A stretch of 53,456 nucleotides of DNA, taken from a bacterium (lineage in GTDB: Archaea; Nanobdellota; Nanobdellia; SCGC-AAA011-G17; GW2011-AR17). Below are positions 848 to 19,347 of the stretch, one piece after another. The number at the start of each line of letters is the position of its first letter. The stretch's first letter is position 1. The notes under the pieces are model-generated. The model did no database searches, had not been told where the DNA came from, and worked only from the letters and a program-made list of their open reading frames with translations. A program made the position numbers and the translations under genes. The stretch is from NCBI GenBank assembly GCA_030697685.1, contig JAUYPF010000035.1, positions 1 through 53,456 on the forward strand, given 5' to 3'.

Positions 848-1486
848 TTACATCTCTTGTAAATAGCGCAAATATATTTTATTTCTTTCTATAGCATCTA
901 AAAGAACTCTTGCCATCTCAGCCCAATTTCCATAAGAATAAGTAAGCATATCTTTTTCTGTATTCAAAATATATACAGCATTATTTTTTAATAAACTTAT
1001 ATTAGAATTATCTTTTCCATGAATATAAACACGAGCAAGATGAAAAAGATGATTCTCATCAAAATGAAGAACAAATGCAAGTCCATCTCCTTTCCATCTA
1101 TCCCATTTCTCTTCTTCAGAAGAAAAATAAGGAGTTCTAATAAGAGCACTCAATCGCAGAAAATTATTTTTTTTCGATGAAGGAAATTTTTTACTTGAAC
1201 CTAATAAAGGAAGATTTCTTTCTTCTAATCCTTGAAGTATTGCTTTTCCTAATTTTTTTGTATCTTCCCTGCATCGAACATCAAAAGTCTTATACACAGC
1301 ATTCTCATTATCAAAAACAAAAGGAAACTTTTTATTTCCTTCAAAAAAACGAATATTGGAAGGATTTTTACCTGGATTTCCTGCAAGCCATTTAGCAAGA
1401 GGAGTATACGCTGCTGGAATTTTTACTCCCTTAATATACATTCCTTCTTTCTTTCGAGAACCAAACAACCAATCCCATATGCCCAT
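848..1486 (-). CDS. Hypothetical protein with amphipathic N-terminus (MGIWDWLFGSRKK)
   Basis: 212-aa ORF; no motif recognised. Confidence 0.7.
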   Translation of the reverse strand: MGIWDWLFGSRKKEGMYIKGVKIPAAYTPLAKWLAGNPGKNPSNIRFFEGNKKFPFVFDNENAVYKTFDVRCREDTKKLGKAILQGLEERNLPLLGSSKKFPSSKKNNFLRLSALIRTPYFSSEEEKWDRWKGDGLAFVLHFDENHLFHLARVYIHGKDNSNISLLKNNAVYILNTEKDMLTYSYGNWAEMARVLLDAIERNKIYLRYLQEM

Positions 1487-1663: not shown

Positions 1664-3925
1664 ATGGTTAATAGGCACAGAGACTTCATAACAGCATACC
1701 AATTAACATGCACAGAACCAAGATTTGCAGAAGCCCTAGAAAGAAAATTTATGGGCTTTATAGGAAATGGAAAACAGCATGCTGGAAGAAGAGAAGCCTT
1801 TGAAATCACAAGAGAAGGTTATACCTGTATAATAAAACTCTCTAATAAAGAATATGTTTCTGATTTGGCTTCATTTTTACATAGAGAAGTAAAAGATGGA
1901 ACAATAATTCAAACAATAGATCCTACAAGAGCACAAGAAAATATTGAAGAATATAAAAGGAGAATAGGAAGTTTAGAAGAGCAACTTAGTCTAACAAGTG
2001 ATAAAATTGAAAGATTAGGAAGTGATTATACGGCAGTAGAAAAAAGGGCTACAGATCTTACAAGAACGAATGAAGAACTAACAATAATATACCAACAAAC
2101 AGAAGAAAGATATAAAAGAGAAAGAACAGATCTGAATCTAAGACTTACAGATTTAGAAACAGCACTTGCAAATAAAGATTCATTTGACAAAGAAATAGAA
2201 CAATTTAAAGAAATAGAAAAAACATGGAAAAAAGTTAAAGAATGTATTGGAGAAAGAGAGCTAGAAGAAATTATTGCAATAACCAGAGAAGGAAGTGAGG
2301 CCTATCTCAAAGCACAAATACCTAATTATAAAAATATGGAAAAACTAGGTGGAAGAGAACAAATTCTTGCAGAAAAAGGAAGAGCATTTGAAGAGACAGA
2401 CATACACCAAGAAATACAAAAAGCAGAAGGGATTATAAAATATTACGATAGGTTAAAAAAATATTTCACAGAAGATGGAATGATTACAGATGCAAAAGCA
2501 GCAGTAAAAGATTTAGCTATTCCAGAAGCACTTCTCCAAAGACTATTTGCAACGACAAAAGAAGAAGTGCCAAAATATGAAGTAATTTTAAGTAAAAGAG
2601 AAGAAGCAAAAAGGCAGCATCAACAAAAGCAGGGAATTGCTGAATCTTTAGAAAGATTAGAGAAAGAATATCAAGATATTGCTAATATACGACAAAAAAT
2701 AGAAAGAATACTAGAAACAAATAGAACTATAGCATTAGAACTAAAATTACTAGGTGAAGACACAGAAAATATTATATTTGAGGGGAGGCTTCCTCTACAA
2801 AAAACAAATGCAGAAACAGAACTAGGAAGAACATTGCAATTATGTATGCTTGCAACAATAACAGATAAAGAAAATTTTCCAGGTTTAGAATATAGTGAAA
2901 TAGATAACAAAAATGTAACATATCAATTTAAACTTCCAAAAACAAACGCACAAACAGCACTACAAACAACACATACACTTGCAGAAAGAATGACTACTCT
3001 TCTTGGAGAAACGGACTTTGGACTTGCAGGAGGAAAACTAAGAATTCTTTATTCAGGGATAATTGGTGAGCTCCCAACAATAGAAACAGAACAAAGACCT
3101 GTAATAACAATAAAAGAAAATACTCCAAAAGTACAAAATATAGAACTAAATCAAGGATCTAAAATTCTAAGTTATGAAGATTTTATAAAATTACAAGATA
3201 AAGAAGCAGGCCAGTTAGGTATATATCTTCCAACAATAGAAGACTTAAATCTATCTCAAAGAAAAGAGGCAACAGAAGGAACAAAATTAAACCATCTTGG
3301 AGCAAGAGAAATTATTCTTGCAATGGCAGAAACAGGAAGAGTAAGATCTAAAAAAATTGCTCCGTACATAAAAGAAAGAATAAAAGAATTGTATGGATTT
3401 CATATTTTAGAAGAAAAAGAAAGAGATTTTAGATATTCTTCTAGAATGAATGGATGGCTTGCAAGTTTATCCACAGATTTTATTAAAAAACTAGACAATT
3501 TTATTCGTCCTAATCCTTGTTTTAATGTTACAGAAAGAATAATCAAAAGAGATCTAAAAGAGTATAATGAAGAAGATAGAAAACTTCTTTATACTTTCAA
3601 ATCAAAAATTCCATTAGGGTTGCATACAGTCAGGCAAGCAATAGAATATGAAAAAATGGCTGAAGAAAGAATTTCTGCAGGAGAAAGTTTTTCACCTGGA
3701 GAATCAAGATCTATTCTAGCAGTAAAAGCAGCAAGGGTTTTTGATCATTATGTCATCCTTGACATTCTTAAAAAGAATCCAACAACTGCAAATGAACTCC
3801 TATACAATGTTCAAGCTTTTCTACCAATGGCAAATGAGGAATTTATTGGAAGAAGTCTACATAGATTGAGAAAAGCAAAGTTAGAAGATAGATTAGAAAG
3901 AAGAATAGGAGTGCTGCATAGATGA
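1664..3925 (+). CDS. Large coiled-coil protein with probable C-terminal winged helix-turn-helix domain(s)
   Basis: Heptad-rich E/K/L segments at about aa 90-350; C-terminal VILDILKKNPTTANELL...FIGRSLHRLRKAKL fits a wHTH pattern; no Walker A motif. Confidence 0.6.
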   Translation: MVNRHRDFITAYQLTCTEPRFAEALERKFMGFIGNGKQHAGRREAFEITREGYTCIIKLSNKEYVSDLASFLHREVKDGTIIQTIDPTRAQENIEEYKRRIGSLEEQLSLTSDKIERLGSDYTAVEKRATDLTRTNEELTIIYQQTEERYKRERTDLNLRLTDLETALANKDSFDKEIEQFKEIEKTWKKVKECIGERELEEIIAITREGSEAYLKAQIPNYKNMEKLGGREQILAEKGRAFEETDIHQEIQKAEGIIKYYDRLKKYFTEDGMITDAKAAVKDLAIPEALLQRLFATTKEEVPKYEVILSKREEAKRQHQQKQGIAESLERLEKEYQDIANIRQKIERILETNRTIALELKLLGEDTENIIFEGRLPLQKTNAETELGRTLQLCMLATITDKENFPGLEYSEIDNKNVTYQFKLPKTNAQTALQTTHTLAERMTTLLGETDFGLAGGKLRILYSGIIGELPTIETEQRPVITIKENTPKVQNIELNQGSKILSYEDFIKLQDKEAGQLGIYLPTIEDLNLSQRKEATEGTKLNHLGAREIILAMAETGRVRSKKIAPYIKERIKELYGFHILEEKERDFRYSSRMNGWLASLSTDFIKKLDNFIRPNPCFNVTERIIKRDLKEYNEEDRKLLYTFKSKIPLGLHTVRQAIEYEKMAEERISAGESFSPGESRSILAVKAARVFDHYVILDILKKNPTTANELLYNVQAFLPMANEEFIGRSLHRLRKAKLEDRLERRIGVLHR

Positions 3926-5421
3926 AATCCCTCAAAGACCTTATTAAAGGGCAGCAACCTATTGGAGAAGCATTAAGGGATTTTAGAGCACAAGATTTGA
4001 ATATGGAAGATCTTCTTGAGGGAAGACTTTCCAGAGAAGAAATAACAAAAACACTAGGGCCATCATTAGATCTTGCAGCATTTGGAACAGGTGAATTAGG
4101 AGGAAGAATTATTGTTATTGAACCACCAGATACTTTAGTAGATGGAAAAGGAAGACCAGTACGATTATACTATGTCATTGGTGGAGAGACTTTAACTATT
4201 AATGGAGAACCAGGAGATAGGCCTTTTTATAAAAGAAAAGATATGGAAGCCATACTCCCATTAGACTTAACTGAAATTACTATAGATACAAGTGGACAAC
4301 CACAAATTCAAAGAAAAACAAAAGAAACAGAAAAAAGAAATCCAAATACACCAGAGAAATTAAAAGAAGGAAAAGCAACAACAAAAAGAAGAACAACACA
4401 ATTTGATGCATTATTATATTCTTACTTACTGAAGAACGGAGATGATATTGCACACTTAGTAAATGGTTTAGAAGAAATACCTAAAACAAAACAAGCTATT
4501 TCTGGAGAAGCAGCATTAAGAGAACATTTCCCAGAAGCCGATGCACTTCTTGCATTTGGTGTAACAAAAGTGCATTCATTAGAATCCTGGTTACAAGAAA
4601 TGGTTCAAGAAAGAATTTCAAATTTAAAAAGAGATATCAAAGAGTTTTATACAACAACAGAAGGAAAAGAATTTGTAAGAGAATTTATGAACCAAGAATT
4701 TCCACAAACATATGATCATGCACCAGAAGTCATGAAATGGATCATTAATTATGGAATAGAAGGAAGACAGCCTCAATTTTTACTTTCTGCAATAGGTGCA
4801 GGAATCTTAGGAGAAGAAAAAGAAAAGAAACAAGTATATAGATTCTGGGGCAGAGTTGCAAAAGCAACAAGAGAAGCTGCATCAAATACAGTATTAATCG
4901 AAAAAGGATATTTAGAAGGAAAACATAACATTGATGATATTTATATACCATTATTAAGAGAATTAAGAAATAGAAGAGGGATTTATTCTGGATCTACAGT
5001 TGAAGCAAGTTTATTTGGCCTGTTTGGTTTAGGATTATTACTAGATTCTAAAGGAGAAGTCATAAACGCACATTCTCTAAACAGAACATATACAGAAACA
5101 GGAAGATACATTATAAATAATTATCCTACTATAAAAATTTTAATTGATGAAATGGTAAAAGATGAGGAATTAAGAAAAAAATATTCCTCTTCTAAAACTA
5201 CATCAGGGCTTATTCAAAGAGCAATTCTAAACGAAGAAAGTTTACGTGAAAGACTAACCATGACCAAAGCAGAGAAAGGAGAAATGAAAACAGTTCCTAT
5301 TTCAGAAGCATTACTAAATTTTGTCATCCCAGCATATTTACGAGTAGAAATAGATAGATACAAACCATGTATGACATTAGAAACAGATGCACATTTCTTA
5401 AGAAACACCATGAGTGAGTGA
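3922..5421 (+). CDS. Hypothetical protein (possible MerR/Xis-like HTH at the N-terminus)
   Basis: 499-aa ORF, ATGA overlap with the upstream stop, SD AGGAG; LSREEITKTLG...PFYKRKDMEAI weakly resembles excisionase-type HTH. Confidence 0.55.
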   Translation: MKSLKDLIKGQQPIGEALRDFRAQDLNMEDLLEGRLSREEITKTLGPSLDLAAFGTGELGGRIIVIEPPDTLVDGKGRPVRLYYVIGGETLTINGEPGDRPFYKRKDMEAILPLDLTEITIDTSGQPQIQRKTKETEKRNPNTPEKLKEGKATTKRRTTQFDALLYSYLLKNGDDIAHLVNGLEEIPKTKQAISGEAALREHFPEADALLAFGVTKVHSLESWLQEMVQERISNLKRDIKEFYTTTEGKEFVREFMNQEFPQTYDHAPEVMKWIINYGIEGRQPQFLLSAIGAGILGEEKEKKQVYRFWGRVAKATREAASNTVLIEKGYLEGKHNIDDIYIPLLRELRNRRGIYSGSTVEASLFGLFGLGLLLDSKGEVINAHSLNRTYTETGRYIINNYPTIKILIDEMVKDEELRKKYSSSKTTSGLIQRAILNEESLRERLTMTKAEKGEMKTVPISEALLNFVIPAYLRVEIDRYKPCMTLETDAHFLRNTMSE

Positions 5422-5426
5422 GGCAT

Positions 5427-8400
5427 ATGGCACTCAACCTAAACAAATATTCTCTTGATGATCGTTTTAGAATGATTATGAGAGAAATAAAAAGAGTTCC
5501 AGATGAAGAAGAACTCCAAGAAGTTCCTTATTTTTCTGAAGTTCTAGAAACGATTACCAAAACCTACGGTACTTTAGAAAAATATCTCAGAACAACAAAT
5601 ATTGCAAATACTTTACAAGTGGAACAATCACCTTTCCCCTCAGTACAACAACTACATACAATGGTTTCCATAACCGAGAGAGAAAGAATTATCATTGGTG
5701 ACGAACCAGGAACAAGAAAAACTGCAGCAGCAGGTTTAGCAAAATATTCTATAGAAAGAAAATTAGGAAAGAAAATAAAAACACTTGTGCTTTGTCCAAG
5801 CTATTTGATTAGTAATTGGATGATGAGATTAGATGAATATCATCAAGAAGAACCAAGTTATTGTGTCATTACACCTGAAGATAAATGGGAAGATTTGAAA
5901 AGAGCAGCTTCTAATGATGTTGATTATATTTTTGTCAGCTATGATTTGCTTTACAAGGATGTAGAAACAACAAATGGTGGAAGCAAAGAAGAATATGAAC
6001 TTCACGCAACTATTTTAGCACAACAATATACAAATGACAAAACAGCTGCATGGAAACATCATCAAGGATTAAATTGTAATTATGGAGCAACAGAAGAAAG
6101 TACAATAGAAGAAATATGCTTAGGTATTGCTTTCGAAGAAGCAGTCCAAACAGAAAATGAAAACAAAAAAGTATGTGATACATTAGAAAGAATACTTACA
6201 AGAAATGATCCTGATGAGACAACAAAACATGATTTTTATTTAATTGCAGATGAATTTCACAACGTACGAGATGCAAGCCTAAAGAAAAAAACAAATGCTT
6301 TTTACAGACTTGCACAAAGAGCAAGGTTCGCAGCTTTTCTTTCTGGAACAAAAACACCAGACAACATAGGAGATATTGCAGTTATAGCGTCTATCCTAGA
6401 TAATCCACGATTCCCAAACCCTAAAGATTTTATTGATGCAGTAGGAAATAATCCCGCAGCAGTAAGAAGATTTTATGCACAATGGGAAAAAAAGCCAGTA
6501 TTAAAAACAACAGATATTGGTGAAGATAATATTCCAAAAGCAAAAGATATCACATTCACATTAAACGAAAAAGAATTCTCATTGTACTTTGCAATTCAGA
6601 ACCATTCTGAAATAGCAGAAGCAGAAAAACTTCTTCTTCTGCGCTATGTTACACTAGATGCAGCATTAATTGATCCCAGAAGATACTTAGGAAGTCCTAG
6701 TATGAGAAATAAATTGCTAAAAATTCAAAAAGAAGAACCAGAAGCTTTTGAAGATATAACAACAAATAATTCTACAAGATATCAAACATTAGAGGGAATA
6801 ATTGAAAATATTCCCTATCCTGAGAAGTATGTTATTTTTTCAAAATTTTCCCTTGGAGTTATTCCAGTTATTGAAGCAAGGCTAAGAGCAAAAGGAGAAA
6901 ATATTGTAAAGGTAGATCAAACTATTGGAACTGAAAATAAAAAAATAAAATTAACAACAAAAGAAATAGCAGAATTAAAAGAAAAAGGGATATATAGAGA
7001 ACAAAAATACAGAGTAGACTTAAAAAGATCCGAAAAAGAAGCAATACATCTAGCAGGAAGAAGAACCTTAAGGTATTCTGAAAGGGACATTGCAGTGCTT
7101 ACAGCACAGTGTAATCCAGACATTGATGGAGTACTTGCAACATACGGAACACTACGAGAAGGAAGAGACCTCACCGCAGTAAATCACATTATCAAGCTGG
7201 ACAGAGAATATCAACCAGGAGTAGAAAGGCAAGCAATTGGAAGGGCTGCTGGAAGAAGTGGACAGCAAAGAAAATGTCACATTTATGCACTACGTGCAAA
7301 TGCAACACAAGATGATGGAATTGAAGATCATGTAAATAGAAAAGAAAGAACCATTATCCTAGCAGAATCCTGCGAAGAAAGAATTTCTTCAGAAGATGCA
7401 CAAAGTCTCGCAGGAAAAATTCGGCCACATAACGAAAGAGAGATTCGTCCATATATGTTCAGCTCACACCAATTAGTACGAATGATTTTAGGAAATTTAA
7501 GTGGAGCAGGAGTTTCTGCAATGGAAGCTCTTGTAGAACAAGGACTAGGTGAACTCTTTGCACAAAATTATAATTACAAATGGGAACTAAGTAGTTCTGC
7601 AAACATTGGAAGGCTCATCGCAATGACCCTAGCATTTAAAGGAAAAGAATTCTCACAAGTGATTGAGTTAGGATCTGGTCCAGCTCAAATGGCAAGAGTC
7701 CTCGGAAGAACAACAACATGTATGGATTATTTAAAGGAACAACTAGAAATAGGAAAAAAAGAATGTGAAAAACTAGGATTCCAAATTAAAACACAACAAG
7801 GGTCTATACACCGAATACCACTCCCATCAGAAACATATGATCTTTCTGTTGCATCAAACGTTTTCAACTTATTAACACTCCAAGAAAGAGCAGAAGCAAT
7901 GAGAGAAAATCAAAGAATCCTCAAAAAAGGAGCAAGAGGAATTTGGGTATTCCCACCAAGTGCAACAGAACTAGAAGCAGGAGATTTAAGTATTATACAA
8001 AAGCTAAAAAGAGATTTTAAGAAAGCAGGTTTTAGTATTGATGAAGAAGTTACTGGAAGATATGTAGCAAGAAATGCTATTGACCTCAATACAGGAAATG
8101 AAATTACAAGTGAAACAAAAACCTTTCTTCTTGCAGCAGAAAATACAGAAAAAGGGATTATCGAAGAAGGAATGTTTGAATTAAAAGTAGACTATTCTTA
8201 TAGCAAAGGAAAAGGAAAACAAAGAAACGTACTAGAACCAATGCAGGGAATCCCACAAGCACAAGCAGAAGTCTGCTTAGCATTTGAAAATATAGACTCA
8301 GGTCTGGAATTAAAAACAAAAGAAAAACCAATTTCAAGAGAAGAGCTCAGGAGAAGAATTAATCAAGGTCTAAAAACGGGAGAATTAGCAGAAGAGGATA

Positions 8401-8444
8401 TTGCAAAAATAATTAGAGCCCTTATTGAAGGAGAACGAAATTGA
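5427..8444 (+). CDS. SNF2-family SF2 ATPase/translocase fused to a C-terminal class I SAM-dependent methyltransferase
   Basis: Motif I GDEPGTRKT, Ia LVLCPSYLISNW, II LIADEFH, III LSGT, IV YVIFSKF, V EGRDLT, VI QAIGRAAGRSGQ; MTase IELGSGP...MD...GSIHRIPLPSETYDL...RILKKG. ATG 5427 preferred over GTG 5418. Confidence 0.88.
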   Translation: MALNLNKYSLDDRFRMIMREIKRVPDEEELQEVPYFSEVLETITKTYGTLEKYLRTTNIANTLQVEQSPFPSVQQLHTMVSITERERIIIGDEPGTRKTAAAGLAKYSIERKLGKKIKTLVLCPSYLISNWMMRLDEYHQEEPSYCVITPEDKWEDLKRAASNDVDYIFVSYDLLYKDVETTNGGSKEEYELHATILAQQYTNDKTAAWKHHQGLNCNYGATEESTIEEICLGIAFEEAVQTENENKKVCDTLERILTRNDPDETTKHDFYLIADEFHNVRDASLKKKTNAFYRLAQRARFAAFLSGTKTPDNIGDIAVIASILDNPRFPNPKDFIDAVGNNPAAVRRFYAQWEKKPVLKTTDIGEDNIPKAKDITFTLNEKEFSLYFAIQNHSEIAEAEKLLLLRYVTLDAALIDPRRYLGSPSMRNKLLKIQKEEPEAFEDITTNNSTRYQTLEGIIENIPYPEKYVIFSKFSLGVIPVIEARLRAKGENIVKVDQTIGTENKKIKLTTKEIAELKEKGIYREQKYRVDLKRSEKEAIHLAGRRTLRYSERDIAVLTAQCNPDIDGVLATYGTLREGRDLTAVNHIIKLDREYQPGVERQAIGRAAGRSGQQRKCHIYALRANATQDDGIEDHVNRKERTIILAESCEERISSEDAQSLAGKIRPHNEREIRPYMFSSHQLVRMILGNLSGAGVSAMEALVEQGLGELFAQNYNYKWELSSSANIGRLIAMTLAFKGKEFSQVIELGSGPAQMARVLGRTTTCMDYLKEQLEIGKKECEKLGFQIKTQQGSIHRIPLPSETYDLSVASNVFNLLTLQERAEAMRENQRILKKGARGIWVFPPSATELEAGDLSIIQKLKRDFKKAGFSIDEEVTGRYVARNAIDLNTGNEITSETKTFLLAAENTEKGIIEEGMFELKVDYSYSKGKGKQRNVLEPMQGIPQAQAEVCLAFENIDSGLELKTKEKPISREELRRRINQGLKTGELAEEDIAKIIRALIEGERN

Positions 8445-9601
8445 GCCTTGATCAAATAGCACTAGGCCTTGTACGTGATTATCCCCAGATTAAATACTCT
8501 GTGTATGCAACATTACAAGGCTATGCCATGTATTGGGATGAAGAAAAAAAAGATAGTACAGAAAATCCAAGAAATTTTCCCAAAAATTCTTATTATCATA
8601 GCTGGAAAAGTTTTATAGAAAAATTAAAAACAAAAACAGAATGGAAAATCCCCAAATATAGATTACCAGACACTCCTATATTTGAGAAACAAAATATTTT
8701 AGCACAAGCATTAGCAAATAAAAAAATAGTAAGAGATGCATTTTTAGAAGAGATTAGTCCAGAATTACAAAGGACATTAGCAGACATCCTTTTTGAAAGA
8801 AATATTATTGCAGAAAGTGCAGATCTTTTTATTGATACATTTGATTACGAAAAAGTAAAAAAAGATCCAGAAAGAAATCCATTTGAACATTTTTTAGAAC
8901 ACTTTGATATAGACCAAAGATCCCACAAACAAAAACCAAAAAAATCCTATTTACCATTGCTCACAAGATTAAAAAATGAAGGAGATATCTGGGAAGAAAT
9001 CTATATAGAAAGACTAAAAGAAAAAGATGAGATTCTTGCACAAAGGATACAAAGTATTTTCGAAGGAATAGAAGCAAATAATTTTGACGAGCAAGAAAGA
9101 ATGAAAATTGTAGAACTCCTAACAGAAAAAGGCTGTGTAGGACTTGTAGAAAGACTTGGGCAAGATGCATATGATATTCTTGTTGCAATGTATGGTGAAG
9201 AACAATTTCCAGAAGAAAAAAGGCATATTTTGAGTTCAGGAAAAGCAATACGCCCATACTTAGGAAAATGCAGAAGAAAGATGATACGATCTGAATTTAA
9301 TATTTGGGAAAGGGACCTTATAAGAACCTTAAAAGAAAAAGGATTAAGGCCTTCAATTTATGATAAAAATATTACTGTACAAAGAATTTTACAAACAACA
9401 TTTCTTGCACCATATATAGAAATGGCCTCTAAAGGAGAAGATCCAATAGTCCCATTACAAGCACAGACAAAAGAAGAAGATGTACTTACAAAAAAACTTG
9501 CACGCTATGGATTAGAACATTTCCAAATGATGAGAGAAATCCAAGATTACCCAGAAATTAGCCATACTTTAGCAATAGTACGGGCAAAGAAAGATTTATA
9601 A
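8441..9601 (+). CDS. Hypothetical alpha-helical protein
   Basis: 386-aa ORF; TTG start overlaps the upstream stop (TTGA) with GGAG upstream. Confidence 0.7.
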   Translation: MSLDQIALGLVRDYPQIKYSVYATLQGYAMYWDEEKKDSTENPRNFPKNSYYHSWKSFIEKLKTKTEWKIPKYRLPDTPIFEKQNILAQALANKKIVRDAFLEEISPELQRTLADILFERNIIAESADLFIDTFDYEKVKKDPERNPFEHFLEHFDIDQRSHKQKPKKSYLPLLTRLKNEGDIWEEIYIERLKEKDEILAQRIQSIFEGIEANNFDEQERMKIVELLTEKGCVGLVERLGQDAYDILVAMYGEEQFPEEKRHILSSGKAIRPYLGKCRRKMIRSEFNIWERDLIRTLKEKGLRPSIYDKNITVQRILQTTFLAPYIEMASKGEDPIVPLQAQTKEEDVLTKKLARYGLEHFQMMREIQDYPEISHTLAIVRAKKDL

Positions 9602-9623
9602 ATCAGAGGAGAAAAAAAAACAT

Positions 9624-10247
9624 ATGGCATCAAGAGTAGAAGAATTATCCAGAGCAGCAAAAAAACTCTCTCCAGAGGATAGAGAAAGGTTAGCAAGAGA
9701 ACTAACAAGAACACTAACACAAAAAGTATCTCAAGCATTTAATTGGACAAGAGACCCTTTTACTGTGGCAGAAGATCTTTGCGGCGCTGTTCTAAAAAGC
9801 AACATACTCTCTGAAGAAGAATATAGAATCACAGATGTTCGTGCTTGGAGAGAAATGGATGCAAAAAGAGCAGGGATATATGATATTGTTCATAGAGAAG
9901 CAGGAACAATACATGCATTTCCTTTGAGAAGATACAAGCCAAGAGCTGAAAACGAAGAAAAAGCCCAGCCATATCACATTTTGTCTATCATTACAAATTC
10001 CCCTGCATATCCAATAGGTCTTATAACACTAAATGGAATAGTATTAGGAAAAGAAAGAATTTCTGCAACAGATATTTGGGAGAGATTAAATATTCCAGAA
10101 AGTGACATCATGAACATTCCATTTTCAGAAAGAGTAAAGATAGAACTACCAGATCTAAGAACACAAAACCTAAGAAGTACATATGAACTAAAAGAATTCT
10201 CTAATCTGAAAGTAAAAGGATATAAGATCACTTTACATTCTCTATAA
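9624..10247 (+). CDS. AAG/MPG (3-methyladenine DNA glycosylase)-like protein, probably catalytically altered, with an N-terminal helical extension
   Basis: FNWTRDPFTVAEDLCGAVL...YRITDVRAW...AGTIHAF...LSIITNSPAYPIGLITL follows the AAG pattern FFxRDxxxVARDLLGxxL...GRIVETEAY...PGxxYVY...LNVVT...AAVLIR; SD GAGGAG. Confidence 0.55.
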   Translation: MASRVEELSRAAKKLSPEDRERLARELTRTLTQKVSQAFNWTRDPFTVAEDLCGAVLKSNILSEEEYRITDVRAWREMDAKRAGIYDIVHREAGTIHAFPLRRYKPRAENEEKAQPYHILSIITNSPAYPIGLITLNGIVLGKERISATDIWERLNIPESDIMNIPFSERVKIELPDLRTQNLRSTYELKEFSNLKVKGYKITLHSL

Positions 10248-10334: not shown

Positions 10335-10745
10335 ATGCCATTAGAAGCAAAAGTAGACGGTAAAGCAATAGAATATACACCCAGTCCTATACAAACACTT
10401 TTTGAACGCCTTAGTTATAATCCTGAAAGAAATTTCTATACCAGAAGATTAGAAAATAATACTTTAGTAAGAATTTCTCCATCATATTATCACAGAGATA
10501 TATTCAAATATAAAGCTACAATATCTAATGATCTAAGAAATATTGGTGTAAGACTTTCAGAACCTCTTAGAGAATATTTAACAATTCATACCCAAAAAGA
10601 AAAAGAAATTATTGTTGAAAGAGATATGAAAAAAGGAAGTATACTTGTCAAACAAAACATCAAAAAAGAGAGATTCACAAGTAGAAGAATTTTTACATTT
10701 GATGATGATGTTGAATTAGAAAGATATGTGAGAGGTTTACTTTAA
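10335..10745 (+). CDS. Hypothetical protein
   Basis: 136-aa ORF preceded by BRE/TATA-like AAAGCATTTAAA. Confidence 0.65.
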   Translation: MPLEAKVDGKAIEYTPSPIQTLFERLSYNPERNFYTRRLENNTLVRISPSYYHRDIFKYKATISNDLRNIGVRLSEPLREYLTIHTQKEKEIIVERDMKKGSILVKQNIKKERFTSRRIFTFDDDVELERYVRGLL

Positions 10746-10746
10746 C

Positions 10747-11100
10747 ATGTATCCATTCAGAGACGCTATTTTAGAAACAATAAACGAACAAAAAAGTGGT
10801 ATTCTCTTTGGCCTAGCAACAATAGGAATAAGCGCAGCTTTAGGGGCATATTTATTCCCAAGAGAAGTCTCTAATATTGGAATTTATGATAAAGATCTTG
10901 ATGGATATGTTGATGTTATAGAAGATAAAAATTGGAAGATTATTCTCACGAATGATAGTAAAAATCTTATACAAGAAGAGAACAGAGATTTTCTATATAT
11001 CACCTGTTATTACTCTGAAACTATTTCTATGAAGAACATTGGGACAGAATTTGCACAAAGAGTAAGGCCATATTTAGAAGACTGCCTTAAAAAATATTAA
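10747..11100 (+). CDS. Single-TM membrane protein with a DxDxDG Ca-binding-like loop
   Basis: ILFGLATIGISAALGAYLF followed by DKDLDGYVD. Confidence 0.6.
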   Translation: MYPFRDAILETINEQKSGILFGLATIGISAALGAYLFPREVSNIGIYDKDLDGYVDVIEDKNWKIILTNDSKNLIQEENRDFLYITCYYSETISMKNIGTEFAQRVRPYLEDCLKKY

Positions 11101-12266
11101 TTTTTTTCTAAATCAGCAATATCAATCAAAGTTTTTGTATCATAGCCCATAGAATCTAATAAATTACAAGGATGTATGCAATCACAGGCTTTCGTTTTCT
11201 TCCGCATATCATCTGCATCTTGTGATTTCCAAAGCGCAGCAAAATTCATATCAAAATCATTCAAGTTTGCAAAAGGCCGCGTTGGCTCACACACAGAAAC
11301 GCCACCATTTGGATAGATAACACCAAAAGTCTTTCCTGCAGTGCAAGTAACAACCCGTTTTTCAGTTGCAAGCATTTGTATAGAATATTTCCATTTCAAT
11401 TTCTGAAAATTCTGCCATATCTTATCTCTATGTGTTTCAACTTCTTTTAATAACAAAGTATCATATAACTCTTGCAATTTTTCAACTGCTACAGATTCAG
11501 TCTTTCCTACTTCACCATCAAGATGACTAACAACATCTTTTGGAACTCTATAGGTTCCTAAATGCGCACCCCTAAGAATATTAAACTTATGCATGACTTC
11601 AGGAAATTTTGTTTTTATTTCTCCCACAAAAACAGGAAGTAAATCATAATTTGCAGTACAAATAGTTGTCATCACAGAAACTTCTAATTTTTTTGTAGTT
11701 TTTCGTAACTCAAGCAATTGTTTCAAAGTCTCTGAAGCTCTTTGATAACATTTAGGAATTCTTCTGAATTTATCATGCATTTCTTCAGGACCATCTAAAG
11801 AAACCTGCACATGAAAATATAAATCAGGGCACTCCGCAAGAATCTTTTTGGTCATAGCCAAAATTCTTTCAGTAGTCATTCCATTCGTAGGAGTAGTAAT
11901 TCTTCGTGTTCCATTAATTGTATGAAAAGCAATAATAATCTCATCAAGATCTTTTCGTAAATAAGGTTCTCCACCTGTAAGCATAAGCGTTCGCAAAGGA
12001 TGCTTCAAAGTTTTCGCAATTCTTCTCATATCATCTAAACTAAGTTCTGGTTTTCCAGTATTCAATTCTTCCCAATAAAAACAATGATCACATTTTGCAT
12101 TACAATAATTTGTCACATACAAAGTCATATTTATAGGCGTCTGTAATTTCTGCATTTGTACAACTCTAATTTTATTTGCTGCACGAATACCAGCATCACG
12201 CAAAGGCTTTGGTAAAGAACCTAAAGTACGAAAACCAATCTCTTCTATCTTTGTTGCTATAGCCAT
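11097..12266 (-). CDS. Radical SAM protein with SPASM/twitch domain
   Basis: CNAKCDHC, LTGGEP, SLDG, CTAG...YPNGGVSVCE, CDCIHPC. Confidence 0.92.
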   Translation of the reverse strand: MAIATKIEEIGFRTLGSLPKPLRDAGIRAANKIRVVQMQKLQTPINMTLYVTNYCNAKCDHCFYWEELNTGKPELSLDDMRRIAKTLKHPLRTLMLTGGEPYLRKDLDEIIIAFHTINGTRRITTPTNGMTTERILAMTKKILAECPDLYFHVQVSLDGPEEMHDKFRRIPKCYQRASETLKQLLELRKTTKKLEVSVMTTICTANYDLLPVFVGEIKTKFPEVMHKFNILRGAHLGTYRVPKDVVSHLDGEVGKTESVAVEKLQELYDTLLLKEVETHRDKIWQNFQKLKWKYSIQMLATEKRVVTCTAGKTFGVIYPNGGVSVCEPTRPFANLNDFDMNFAALWKSQDADDMRKKTKACDCIHPCNLLDSMGYDTKTLIDIADLEKN

Positions 12267-13252
12267 CTTTTTCTCGTCTCTTTCAAATAATCTTTCCTTT
12301 TAAATCTTATGTACATGGTCTCTGAAAAAAAAGCAAAATTATAGAAGTATGCTTTTACAAGTGAATATGCATAATCCAAACCAACAATCAAAAATTTAGA
12401 AGTGTTACTAGATTCTTGTACTTTCTTCTCTTGTGCAGAAACCCACTTTATCACATCTTTATTATTTTGTTTTAGCTCTCGAAATTTCTTTGGACTAAAT
12501 GCATAATAAACATCAAGAAGAGGTAAAAAAGGAATAAGAACAAAAGGATAATTCTTCAAGAATATTTTTATTCTATTCTTATGAAAAACATAGAACACAC
12601 TCTTTCTTCCTTTATCAGAAACATAATGGTATACTAAACATCTCGAATCAACAACACTCTGCAATCCCATTTGTCTCAATTTATATCCTATTTCTTTATC
12701 CTCACCTGCATACATAATAGAAGTATCAAAGCCACCGCATGCTTCAAGATCTTTTTTTCGCATCATACAATTACACGTTGCAATATAACCACAAGGATAT
12801 AATTGATAATCATCTGTCTCCATAATATAAGTAGATGTTTCACAATTTCCAGTAATTTCTTTCCTTTTTGTAATCACACCATTATCTACTTTATATGCTT
12901 CTCCACCCAAGGCACCAATCTCTGGATGCTCTTGAAGAATCTTTACCATATTTGAAATAACAGAATTATGAACCATTTCAATATCTGAATCAAGAAAATG
13001 CACATAGCTCCCAGTAGAAAGTATCACTCCTTGATTTTTTGCAATACTAACTCCAAGATTTTCTTTATTCCTATGCAAGCGCACAGAAGGAAAAGACTTC
13101 TCCACCAATCCCACAGAACCATCTGTACTTCCATTATCAATAACAATCACTTCAAAGTTTTTATAGTCCTGTTTCTCTACACTCTTCAAAGTTCTTCGTA
13201 AATCTTCTTTCCTATTCCATGAAGCAATAATGACTGAAACGTGAGGAAACAT
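12257..13252 (-). CDS. GT2 family glycosyltransferase
   Basis: VSVIIASWN, VIDNGSTDGS, FLDSD, GGFD...AGEDKEI. Confidence 0.93.
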   Translation of the reverse strand: MFPHVSVIIASWNRKEDLRRTLKSVEKQDYKNFEVIVIDNGSTDGSVGLVEKSFPSVRLHRNKENLGVSIAKNQGVILSTGSYVHFLDSDIEMVHNSVISNMVKILQEHPEIGALGGEAYKVDNGVITKRKEITGNCETSTYIMETDDYQLYPCGYIATCNCMMRKKDLEACGGFDTSIMYAGEDKEIGYKLRQMGLQSVVDSRCLVYHYVSDKGRKSVFYVFHKNRIKIFLKNYPFVLIPFLPLLDVYYAFSPKKFRELKQNNKDVIKWVSAQEKKVQESSNTSKFLIVGLDYAYSLVKAYFYNFAFFSETMYIRFKRKDYLKETRKRWL

Positions 13253-13306
13253 AAAGAAAAAAAAATAAGAATGTTTAAATAGTTTAGGTATAAAAATTCA
13301 AAAAAT

Positions 13307-13588
13307 ATGGTGCAAACAAAATACCAACTAATTACAGAAAAACCTAAAACCACATCCAATTCAATGGGTATCTTTTATATGGGTAGTATTGGCAGATATA
13401 TGTTGGATTTTAGATAACCTACAATATTTGATGAGTTTAGAGAAGAAAGAATAACCTCAGATTTAGGAAGCACACACTCTAACTTAGAAAATCCAACAAG
13501 AATTCCAGCATATCTCTACCATGGAATAGTCTCTGCAGCACCAATAGCATATGGTATCTACAAAGGACAAGAATATCTTCTACAATAA
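13307..13588 (+). pseudogene. Probable small gene interrupted by one in-frame TAA
   Basis: ATG 13307, TAA 13415-13417, then the same frame stays open to TAA 13586-13588, filling the intergenic gap. Confidence 0.4.
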
Positions 13589-13620
13589 GCCTTAAATAGA
13601 TTCTATTTATTCCTTTCTCT

Positions 13621-14502
13621 ATGTCCTATATAAAAATGCAAGTATTTGATCTTGGTGGCACCTGGATTCGCGCTGCAAATATTTCTAATGAAGGAAAGTT
13701 TGGTTCAATTATAAAAGAACCTACAGAAGAGGATTTCATAGGGCAAATAAAAAAAATCTCAGGACAACTAACACTTTCAACTGAAGAAAGAAACCATCTC
13801 GATTACATTGTAGTTGCCACACCTGGGCCAGTAAGAGATGGAATGCTTTTATCTGCACCACCATTGGGATTGAAAAACTCTCTTGACCTCAAAAAAGAAT
13901 TAGCTTCTTTGGTAACAGGAAAATCTACAGAAATAATTGTAGAAAATGATTTGAATGCTGCAGTATTAGCAGAACTTCACGAAGGTTATGGTAAACAATG
14001 GAACAATTTTTATTTACTAACTTTAAGCACAGGGATTGGCGCAGGGATTGTACTAAATGGAAAATCAGTAAAAGGTGGAGAATTTGGGCATAGCCCAATA
14101 AACCCATTAGAATATCCAGATCAAAGATGTAGTTGTGGAAGAACAAATTGTTGGAGTGCATACGCAAGTGGAAAAGGAATTGAATCACTCATCAAAAAAA
14201 TATACCCTAAATATGAAACAATAGAAGAAGTTTGTAAAGCCTACAAAAAAGAAGAAGCTGCAAGAACAATTATAAACATTGCAAATAATGCAAATGCACA
14301 AGGTCTAGCAATGATGATAAATGCTTTAGAAGTAGAAGGAATTGTGATCATGGGGTCTCTTGGATTACATCAATATAATCTTCTTATCCCTTCAAATATA
14401 GAAATAGAAGAATATGCAATAAATTCTATTCCAGAAATAGTCAAAACAAAACTTGGAGATACGATTGGCCTTTTAGGAGCATATTATAGAGCAATATCAT
14501 GA
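13621..14502 (+). CDS. ROK family sugar kinase
   Basis: DLGGT, ENDLNAA, STGIGAG, GEFGH, CSCG..NC..AYASG. Confidence 0.93.
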   Translation: MSYIKMQVFDLGGTWIRAANISNEGKFGSIIKEPTEEDFIGQIKKISGQLTLSTEERNHLDYIVVATPGPVRDGMLLSAPPLGLKNSLDLKKELASLVTGKSTEIIVENDLNAAVLAELHEGYGKQWNNFYLLTLSTGIGAGIVLNGKSVKGGEFGHSPINPLEYPDQRCSCGRTNCWSAYASGKGIESLIKKIYPKYETIEEVCKAYKKEEAARTIINIANNANAQGLAMMINALEVEGIVIMGSLGLHQYNLLIPSNIEIEEYAINSIPEIVKTKLGDTIGLLGAYYRAIS

Positions 14503-19239: not shown

Positions 19240-19347
19240 GGGCCCGTAGCTCAGCCTGGTAGAGCACCTGCCTTGCAAGTAGGGGGCCTCGGGTTCGAAA
19301 GTGAATCCCCAATATTAAGAGGATCCTCGGAAGTCCCGACGGGTCCA
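19240..19347 (+). tRNA. tRNA-Ala(TGC) with a 34-nt intron (19300-19333) at position 59/60
   Basis: GGGCCCG/CGGGTCC acceptor stem, CT-TGC-AA loop; BHB with TTCG/CGGA helix and AAA, AGT bulges; splicing restores TTCGAAT. Confidence 0.92.

Follow-up and report, generated by a model that had tools for sequence, protein, structure and literature searches.

An SNF2–methyltransferase fusion in DPANN-type archaea and its five-gene module with a predicted alkylpurine glycosylase-fold partner

What does an SNF2-type motor do with a methyltransferase that carries none of the signatures of a DNA methylase? The question is raised by one gene, here called gene C, on contig JAUYPF010000035.1 (assembly GCA_030697685.1) of an archaeon from the GW2011-AR17 lineage of the Nanobdellota. 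We analysed a stretch of 53,456 nucleotides (nt) of this contig, referred to below as the window. Gene C encodes an SNF2 ATPase fused to a class I methyltransferase dependent on S-adenosyl-L-methionine (SAM) and is the third of five co-directional genes, A-B-C-D-E, which together occupy positions 1664-10247 of the forward strand (Table 1). To our knowledge, fusions of a motor with a methyltransferase have been known only with classical DNA adenine methylases, namely in DarB, in type ISP enzymes and in polyvalent proteins. Gene C is best read as the catalytic core of an accessory module that comprises five co-transcribed genes in DPANN-type archaea. Tentatively, we favor the possibility that this module is a DNA-tracking writer–reader system that places a non-canonical methyl mark on purines, probably for defence-like self-marking.

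The fusion itself, proposed in a preliminary description of the window made from its letters, is real. Pfam recognizes both halves of the protein above the family cut-offs, with SNF2-rel_dom at residues 87-343 (32.9 bits, cut-off 24.9), Helicase_C at residues 539-611 (25.9 bits, cut-off 23.5), Methyltransf_11 at residues 750-839 (46.6 bits, cut-off 21.2, E-value 5.4e-12) and, in addition, Methyltransf_25 (45.2 bits, cut-off 27). A search of 5.8 billion clustered proteins yielded seven homologues of 945-1017 amino acids (aa) that are 44-73% identical to the query, and all seven carry both halves. Across 21 sequences sharing 21-60% identity, residues G98, K101, D278, E279, G310, T311, E581, G582, Q605, R609 and R613 of the motor are invariant, as are G754 and D770 of the methyltransferase, with P755 nearly so; in an alignment of eight family members (A1), G752, G754, P755 and D770 are all invariant. 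The ratio of non-synonymous to synonymous substitution rates (dN/dS) of gene C is 0.16, a Nei-Gojobori estimate that, like those given below, rests on comparison with one metagenome relative of 73% identity and on a dS near saturation. Because seven of seven homologues are fused and dN/dS is this low, we regard gene C as neither a chance arrangement nor an artefact; an assembly or frameshift error was ruled out, since the architecture is common to these homologues and to the loci of six genomes. An alternative GTG start at 5418, which overlaps the stop codon of gene B, would extend the protein to 1008 aa. The coordinates first assigned to the gene nevertheless fit, because the database protein and its homologues begin at the ATG at 5427. 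Two copies of the module elsewhere are interrupted. In genome G001 (L012, G001:C7, 7986-11038), about 60 N-terminal codons of gene C are cut off by in-frame stops, counted as one TGA in one comparison and as two TGA and one TAA in another, and in G010 (L011, G010:C16, 4491-5962) gene B is broken into two open reading frames (ORFs). Either decay of these copies or errors of assembly would account for the breaks.

Compared with the PDB, the family profile produced 57 sequence matches at E<=1e-5, and 57 of 57 are Swi2/Snf2 proteins. The best of them, the 1z63 chain 'Helicase of the snf2/rad54 family', has an E-value of 3.9e-15. Conservation extends to helicase motifs I, II, III, V and VI (K101/T102, D278/E279, S309-T311, E581/G582 and Q605/R609/R613). 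This agrees with the preliminary description, which had reported the SF2/SNF2 motif set together with two oddities, a motif I reading GTRKT and an extra residue in motif VI. The first is a family trait: the Gly preceding the Lys is replaced by Arg in seven of the eight aligned family members, P0009 being the one that keeps Gly, and in the wider clade of ~1000-aa relatives the position holds Arg in 20, Gln in 5 and Gly in 2 of 27 sequences. We argue that this unusual P-loop probably still works, because both catalytic centers appear to be maintained in the alignments. The second oddity is genuine in the window's own protein (GRAaGRSGQ), but it occurs in only four of the eight family members, the other four having the canonical R-x-x-R spacing; judged from the alignment, the insertion characterizes one sub-lineage, not the whole family.

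The C-terminal half departs from known DNA methylases. The motif [NDS]PP[YFWH] is absent from all eight family members, and neither PC nor ENV occurs in the methyltransferase domain of any of the eight, the lone 'PC' in one of them lying at a non-homologous spot in the helicase part. No DNA-methylase family of Pfam or NCBIfam matched the gene C protein at E<=0.1, and the sequence-nearest solved chains of the methyltransferase are 'putative methyltransferases' from structural genomics. We modeled residues 655-1008 with AlphaFold from a six-row alignment (mean predicted local distance difference test score (pLDDT) 74, predicted template modeling score (pTM) 0.76) and compared the model with solved structures using Foldseek and VIA. 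All 50 rows listed are small-molecule, natural-product, protein or rRNA-type class I enzymes; DNA methyltransferases are missing from the fold-search matches listed, an absence that excludes nothing. Motifs, Pfam, sequence-nearest structures and fold rows agree, then, with the initial assignment of a Methyltransf_11-type domain that is not a DNA amino- or C5-methyltransferase.

The structural neighbors of the model are many. At the top of the VIA list, nucleomethylin (2zfu; Z 17.7, root mean square deviation (rmsd) 3.4, 204 of 211 residues) ties with ChlM, UbiG and others; a chain of the human pre-40S particle follows at Z 15.6 and the enzymes NRMT1 and yeast NTM1 at Z 15.1 each. Values of 15-17.7 are reached by many class I methyltransferases, with dozens of small-molecule enzymes within 2 Z units. 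We take nucleomethylin to be a homologue of Rrp8, and Rrp8 to be an rRNA N1-adenine methyltransferase; related rRNA-type methyltransferases target purine ring nitrogens. Unlike gene C, Rrp8 has no motor fused to it. At the sequence level, the corresponding family Methyltransf_8 (PF05148, cut-off 27 bits) is reached by some relatives, namely the G203 orthologue (27.8 bits), P0021 (27.2 bits) and P0043 (28.8 bits); P0040 (25.0 bits) and a fusion protein from G052 (22.4 bits) stay below the cut-off, and the window's own protein gives no match at E<=0.1. The modeled fold is class I and Rrp8-like or small-molecule-like, and it does not tell the substrate. The acidic residue of methyltransferase motif II is D770. 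The tail behind the domain is 34-60% identical within the family and barely covered by the fold-search rows, and no fold was assigned to it.

The four partner genes are tightly packed around gene C. Overlaps of 4 nt join A to B, C to D, and B to the upstream GTG of C, while the B stop codon and the ATG of C are 5 nt apart and D and E are separated by 22 nt. From this spacing, the module is predicted to be a translationally coupled operon, and a TATA-like box ahead of gene A suggests a leaderless operon transcript. With dN/dS below 1 for every gene (0.42 for A, 0.22 for B, 0.18 for D and 0.28 for E, beside the value for C), the module is, by these estimates, under purifying selection. Gene A is the fastest-evolving member, its syntenic homologues sharing 19-44% identity. 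None of its seven database homologues has a Pfam domain; A itself matched no family of Pfam, NCBIfam, PADLOC or PHROG above noise, and a PDB profile search returned only coiled-coil noise. The syntenic homologues of B are 32-35% identical, and their poly-Lys/Arg linker is present in six of six aligned sequences. Nothing usable for A, B or D came from Pfam, NCBIfam, PADLOC, PHROGs or PDB profiles, a null that does not prove new folds, and ESM Atlas searches with the module proteins lacking a family gave no usable match. PADLOC found no system in the module and nothing on A, B, D or E.

The five-gene order recurs in genomes G001, G027, G203 and G339 as well as in four metagenome loci. In G010 the order matches up to the end of the contig inside D, and a contig of G013 begins inside C and continues with D and E. 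The copies in two distant genomes have protein lengths of 902-543-1034-364-216 aa (G203) and 1040-579-1035-372-295 aa (G339). In these two, E was recognized by hidden Markov model (HMM) in both and D in G339 only; A and B were assigned by place and size alone. Genes of the D and E type are found in every locus that reaches far enough downstream.

Gene E gives an indirect hint at the substrate. Its alignment contains the motifs 'VA..LCG', 'R-I-x-E/D-V-x-A-W' and 'PGTI..FP..YG', which resemble those of methylpurine DNA glycosylases. With an AlphaFold model built on a six-row alignment (pLDDT 67.5, pTM 0.64) as query, human AAG filled all of the top nine Foldseek rows (E-values 9.4e-5 to 3.2e-3, TM-scores 0.42-0.59), the next rows having E-values >0.1. 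VIA likewise placed AAG first, with Z 13.1 and 12.6 over 156 aligned residues, followed by C-domains of formyltransferases at no more than 7.1. By sequence the relationship is faint. Pfam Pur_DNA_glyco (PF02245) gave a sub-threshold match on the G203 orthologue of E (E-value 2.6e-4, 20.8 versus 27 bits) and none on the window's E; a sequence-profile search of E against the PDB found no AAG, and hhalign of E with two canonical MPGs aligned the expected region with a probability of 1.6%. E would act as an AAG-type base binder at most and is not a member of PF02245.

Relative to human AAG (1ewn, 1bnk; PF02245), E shares the predicted fold, and 'VA..LxG', the EAY-like aromatic and 'YG' align; it differs in an extra N-terminal helical extension and in its active site. 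The Glu of the ETEAY motif, presumably the catalytic Glu of AAG, is kept in one of ten E sequences; the base-stacking aromatic next to it is kept in all ten, the Asn is not kept, and the tyrosine of 'YG' is present in five of the six sequences of a second alignment. E thus has a predicted AAG fold, has probably lost glycosylase chemistry and may still flip and bind a purine. Because the window's genome (G000) has a canonical MPG on another contig, E would be an extra copy tied to the module. In three related loci a 183-aa ORF runs convergent with E and overlaps its 3' end (L013 13556-14107 (-), L015 2826-3377 (-) and L033 14863-15414 (-)). The Pfam scan covered the first two, and in both the ORF is a canonical methylpurine DNA glycosylase (E-value ~1e-59); the arrangement may be chance or may hint at the origin of E.

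The module is sparsely distributed. The family occurs in five of 61 relatives and, at E<=1e-20, in eight of 401 genomes sampled evenly across the phylum; six of these eight bear the fusion in the module, and G282 and G370 match in the SNF2 part only. When 185,579 species were scanned by one genome each, in a set that may omit the window genome's own records, three loci were found. The host genome measures 1.07 Mb in 65 contigs and is 92% complete; the window, at ~33% G+C, bears 16S and 23S rRNA genes, RNase P RNA and a tRNA-Glu gene. The module's context here is kept in the 73%-identical relative. Elsewhere the flanks are FttA, proteasome and MPG genes (G027), RuBisCO and radical-SAM genes (G001), RNA polymerase A'/A'' and NusA-like genes (G203), PIN and PemK/MazF toxin genes directly upstream (G010; L011 664-1781 (-)), and a Phage_integrase gene 1 kb upstream (G339; L025 2305-2925 (-)). 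Relatives of C are absent from IMG/VR viral contigs, and tblastn of C against phage records gave no match; a large distant relative, P0133, matches phage and plasmid records over its SNF2 part only. A viral origin was rejected on these two nulls. An integrated element with att repeats at tRNA-Glu was also considered, and no convincing direct repeats were found. As read from these loci, the pattern is that of a dispensable cassette that occasionally moves.

How might such a module work? We arrive at a writer–reader system because a motor for double-stranded DNA, an rRNA-like methyltransferase and a fold that recognizes alkylated purines occur together. The SNF2 motor would track double-stranded DNA and carry the methyltransferase along, and the methyltransferase would modify a purine position other than the N6-adenine, N4-cytosine and C5-cytosine sites. 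A ring nitrogen would be the likely target, as in the rRNA enzymes that the domain most resembles. E would flip out and read the marked base, or its unmodified counterpart, without excising it; the predicted AAG-fold partner two genes downstream of C makes DNA purines a likelier substrate than a small molecule and lends indirect support to the non-standard methylation suggested in the preliminary description. DNA binding, targeting or effector functions could fall to A and B, which evolve fast, and to the helical D. The likeliest role would be a modification-based, defence-like self/non-self system that follows a logic analogous to DISARM or BREX with other parts. Sensor or specificity parts of defence systems often evolve fast, and for this reason we count the divergence of A (19-44% identity, dN/dS 0.42) in favor of defence. 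A more specific version, in which a ring-nitrogen methylpurine of the m1A, m3A or m7G type is a DNA mark so far without precedent as a biological signal, with an SNF2-borne rRNA-type writer and a disabled glycosylase as reader, is a doubtful proposition at present.

Several observations weigh against a writer–reader system in defence. In A, B and D, family and PDB profile searches turned up neither a nuclease nor any other effector domain. The PADLOC matches of C to defence proteins are weak, partial and confined to the SNF2 part (DpdE 7e-10, DrmD 1e-7, ZorD 2.8e-6). One further match, of the methyltransferase part to mad2 of MADS (E-value 5e-6), was set aside as generic Rossmann similarity; mad2 is described as an N6-methyltransferase in the accessible part of the preprint (bioRxiv 10.1101/2023.03.30.534895). 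The neighbors of the module are mostly housekeeping genes, not defence islands. The modeled class I fold leaves protein, RNA and small molecules as possible substrates, and the Gly-to-Arg/Gln change in Walker A could impair ATP hydrolysis. Loss of the Glu in nine of ten E sequences makes a role as eraser or cutter unlikely, and a reader role is what we infer in its place. Finally, a distant canonical fusion in G052 has two multi-HTH neighbors and no AAG-like ORF in its 12-kb locus (six-frame ORFs >=25 aa).

Some of the same observations would suit a module for DNA-damage surveillance or chromatin, in which the SNF2 motor scans DNA or remodels proteins bound to it, E senses alkylated or deaminated purines and the methyltransferase modifies a protein, for example the linker of B or an abundant DNA-binding protein. 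The mostly housekeeping flanks speak for it; 'DNA excision repair protein ERCC-6', INO80 and Chd1 appear among the sequence matches of C, the fold lists contain the protein N-terminal methyltransferases NRMT1 and NTM1, the poly-Lys/Arg linker of B is present in all six aligned sequences, and a canonical MPG lies convergent with E in two of the three loci with the 183-aa ORF. We nevertheless consider this role unlikely. Patchy presence (8/401) and differing insertion sites argue against a core housekeeping function, A and B diverge at a rate unusual for repair factors, and the module revealed neither a histone-type nor a known chromatin protein. An RNA-directed enzyme, which would methylate bases in rRNA, tRNA or other RNA with the SNF2-like ATPase as a ribonucleoprotein remodeler and the module as an accessory of the ribosome or of RNA modification, appears quite unlikely. 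It would account for the tied top score of nucleomethylin, a presumed Rrp8 homologue, for the pre-40S chain in the fold list, for the Methyltransf_8 matches in relatives and for the position of the window's module ~7.4 kb upstream of the rRNA operon. That proximity is not conserved, however, as the flanks differ in G001, G027, G203 and G339; a patchy distribution is unexpected for rRNA modification, the AAG fold is a duplex-DNA base-flipping fold, and Swi2/Snf2 ATPases are presented in the accessible sections of an article on polyvalent proteins as double-stranded-DNA translocases (PMC5512222).

The possibility to which we give least weight, a very unlikely one, is a mobile-element function of the DarB type, in which an integrated element modifies its own or host DNA to escape restriction or is served by the module in some other way. 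A tRNA-Glu gene precedes A by 860 nt, a Phage_integrase gene lies 1 kb upstream in L025 and toxin–antitoxin toxin genes lie upstream in L011; some distant fused relatives are 1400-2600 aa long, one with a sub-threshold Phage_tudor match, and helicase–methylase dyads are, in the accessible sections of the same article, typical of polyvalent proteins from phages and conjugative elements (PMC5512222). Against this stand the lack of relatives in IMG/VR contigs and in the phage collection (tblastn), of att-marking repeats around the module and of capsid, replication or transfer genes nearby (Pfam of the loci), together with a context that is kept in the 73%-identical relative and looks like vertical descent. 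Moreover, the methylase of DarB, as those sections describe it, is an N6-adenine enzyme N-terminal to the helicase, the reverse of the order found here (PMC5512222).

Comparison with known systems places the fusion outside each of them. Type ISP enzymes such as LlaGI and LlaBIII combine an SF2 motor, an N6-adenine methyltransferase, a nuclease and a target-recognition domain in one polypeptide. Gene C shares with them a single polypeptide with SF2 motor and methyltransferase, but no N6-adenine methyltransferase, nuclease or target-recognition domain was detected in it by Pfam, PADLOC or motifs. In the DarB-type dyad, LPD36 is followed by an EcoKI/TaqI-like N6-adenine methylase with NPP(Y/F), N-terminal to an SNF2 helicase (Iyer et al. 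2017, PMC5512222), and the accessible sections of that article describe the fused methylase only as the N6-adenine type in this position. What the two have in common is a Swi2/Snf2 ATPase and a SAM methyltransferase on one polypeptide and the proposed idea of a motor-carried methylase. In gene C, by contrast, the methylase is C-terminal, Methyltransf_11/Rrp8-like and devoid of NPP(Y/F), and the gene is chromosomal in archaea with four fixed partners; with reversed order and another type of methyltransferase, it does not belong to the DarB-type dyads.

DISARM class 1 (DrmD and DrmMI) and SNF2-containing BREX/BR systems (BrxHII and PglX), as outlined in the accessible portion of PMC12839542, resemble our module in being multi-gene accessory modules with an SNF2 ATPase and a methyltransferase, in their patchy distribution and in some fast-diverging components. 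The module, however, has no equivalents of DrmA/B/C, PglZ, BrxC or their N6-methyltransferases, its one link being a weak DrmD match in the motif VI region; its motor and methylase are fused, it includes a predicted AAG-fold protein, which those systems as outlined there lack, and no nuclease was recognized. Signature proteins of DISARM, BREX, Zorya and Dpd (DrmA/B/C, PglZ/BrxC, ZorA/B, DpdA/B) were not found by PADLOC.

Beyond the module, the fusion is not rare, contrary to what the preliminary description had implied. When 1.84 billion representatives were searched with a profile, 23,344 matched at E<=1e-3, the bulk of them plain SNF2 proteins; 106 reached E<=1e-30. Among the best 150 representatives, 120 match an HMM of the C-terminal methyltransferase region (E<=1e-3), most of them behind an SNF2 domain. 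Pfam confirmed a helicase with Methyltransf_11/25/31 in 26 of 30 proteins picked from these 150 across the score range, and at E<=1e-4 found a helicase only in the other four (P0024, P0027, P0029, P0123). Fused relatives range from ~770 to 2635 aa, most with canonical ADEMGxGKT; the Phage_tudor match in a large one is weak (25 versus 27 bits, sub-threshold, no passing stretch). Database names include 'SNF2 family DNA or RNA helicase/SAM-dependent methyltransferase', 'methyltransferase domain-containing protein' and 'UbiE'. As these sequence matches indicate, the fusion as such is widespread and auto-annotated. In a FastTree phylogeny of 106 fused representatives (midpoint root, supports not considered), the ~1000-aa proteins form one clade, sister to a group of 885-928 aa with Gly in motif I and nested among canonical forms.

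The wider fused family appears unstudied: a literature search found no paper on this fusion type or on the module, although the supplements of PMC5512222 and PMC12839542 might list such architectures. The G052 protein is an example of a canonical relative. It is a 772-aa SNF2-Methyltransf_11 fusion with ADEMGVGKT (L014, G052:C2, 6388-11217 (-)), flanked on both sides by proteins with repeated helix-turn-helix (HTH) motifs of 390 and 446 aa and adjoining Mre11/Rad50-like genes. A kinship of D or B with these multi-HTH neighbors was rejected after hhalign gave probabilities of 0.2-1.3%.

Table 1. Positions of the module genes and of the domains and motifs of gene C in the window
Feature	Position	Strand	Description
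TATA-like box tttataaa	1634-1641	+	~26 nt before the ATG of A; read from the sequence
Gene A	1664-3925	+	753 aa; N-terminal domain, long coiled coil, C-terminal region
Gene B	3922-5421	+	499 aa; Lys/Arg-rich linker
Gene C	5427-8444	+	SNF2 ATPase joined to class I SAM methyltransferase; 1005 aa, ATG at 5427
SNF2 ATPase core	5649-7367	+	Residues ~78-650, counted from 5418
Walker A GDEPGTRKT	5697-5723	+	Motif I of the SNF2 core
Walker B DEFH	6249-6260	+	SNF2 core
Motif VI QAIGRAAGRSGQ	7230-7265	+	SNF2 core
Helical lid and Rossmann-fold methyltransferase domain	7380-8117	+	Residues ~655-900; Methyltransf_11, AlphaFold model
Methyltransferase motif I ELGSGPA	7665-7685	+	
C-terminal tail	8118-8441	+	Residues ~901-1008; predicted beta-hairpin and two helices (model), partly low confidence
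Gene D	8441-9601	+	386 aa; helical
Gene E	9624-10247	+	207 aa; predicted AAG/MPG fold, alkylpurine DNA glycosylase-like, without catalytic Glu

Upstream of the module in the window, between tRNA-Glu and gene A, a 212-aa ORF (848-1486 (-)) has no family match in Pfam, PADLOC or PHROGs; the 73%-identical relative has a 214-aa ORF at the corresponding position and strand, compared by place alone. Directly after E lie two small ORFs of 136 and 117 aa (10335-10745 and 10747-11100, both (+)) without a Pfam match. Their place is taken by ORFs of 136 and 133 aa in L030-L032, the relatives of 73% identity, again compared by place alone, and the pair is absent from the other module loci. Radical-SAM genes adjoin the module in two genomes, at 11097-12266 (-) in the window and at 12815-13915 (+) and 2928-3998 (-) in L012 of G001, where one of them overlaps the stop codon of E by 4 nt; those beside the module in the window and in G001 show no mutual similarity (blastp, 1e-5). 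Farther downstream, in the 16S-23S spacer, positions 19240-19297 give an Rfam tRNA match of 34.5 bits that covers only 58 nt against a 71-position model and is uncalled by ARAGORN. This may be an unusual or degenerate spacer tRNA.

Overall, what is new at this locus is another kind of methyltransferase in a motor fusion, fixed in an operon with a predicted disabled glycosylase fold and three proteins without a family. Few candidate accessory or defence systems are known from DPANN archaea, and this module is a further one. Should the enzyme act on DNA, it would represent a new DNA modification chemistry with a new reader, in which a repair fold is re-used for recognition. Were a ring-nitrogen methylpurine indeed the mark, the chemistry of 'DNA damage' and a repair fold would serve ultra-small archaea in an epigenetic self/non-self system, a recruitment that would perhaps extend to the wider fused family found in archaea, in bacteria and in their elements. 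As this wider family is large, a single biochemical result would annotate many proteins.

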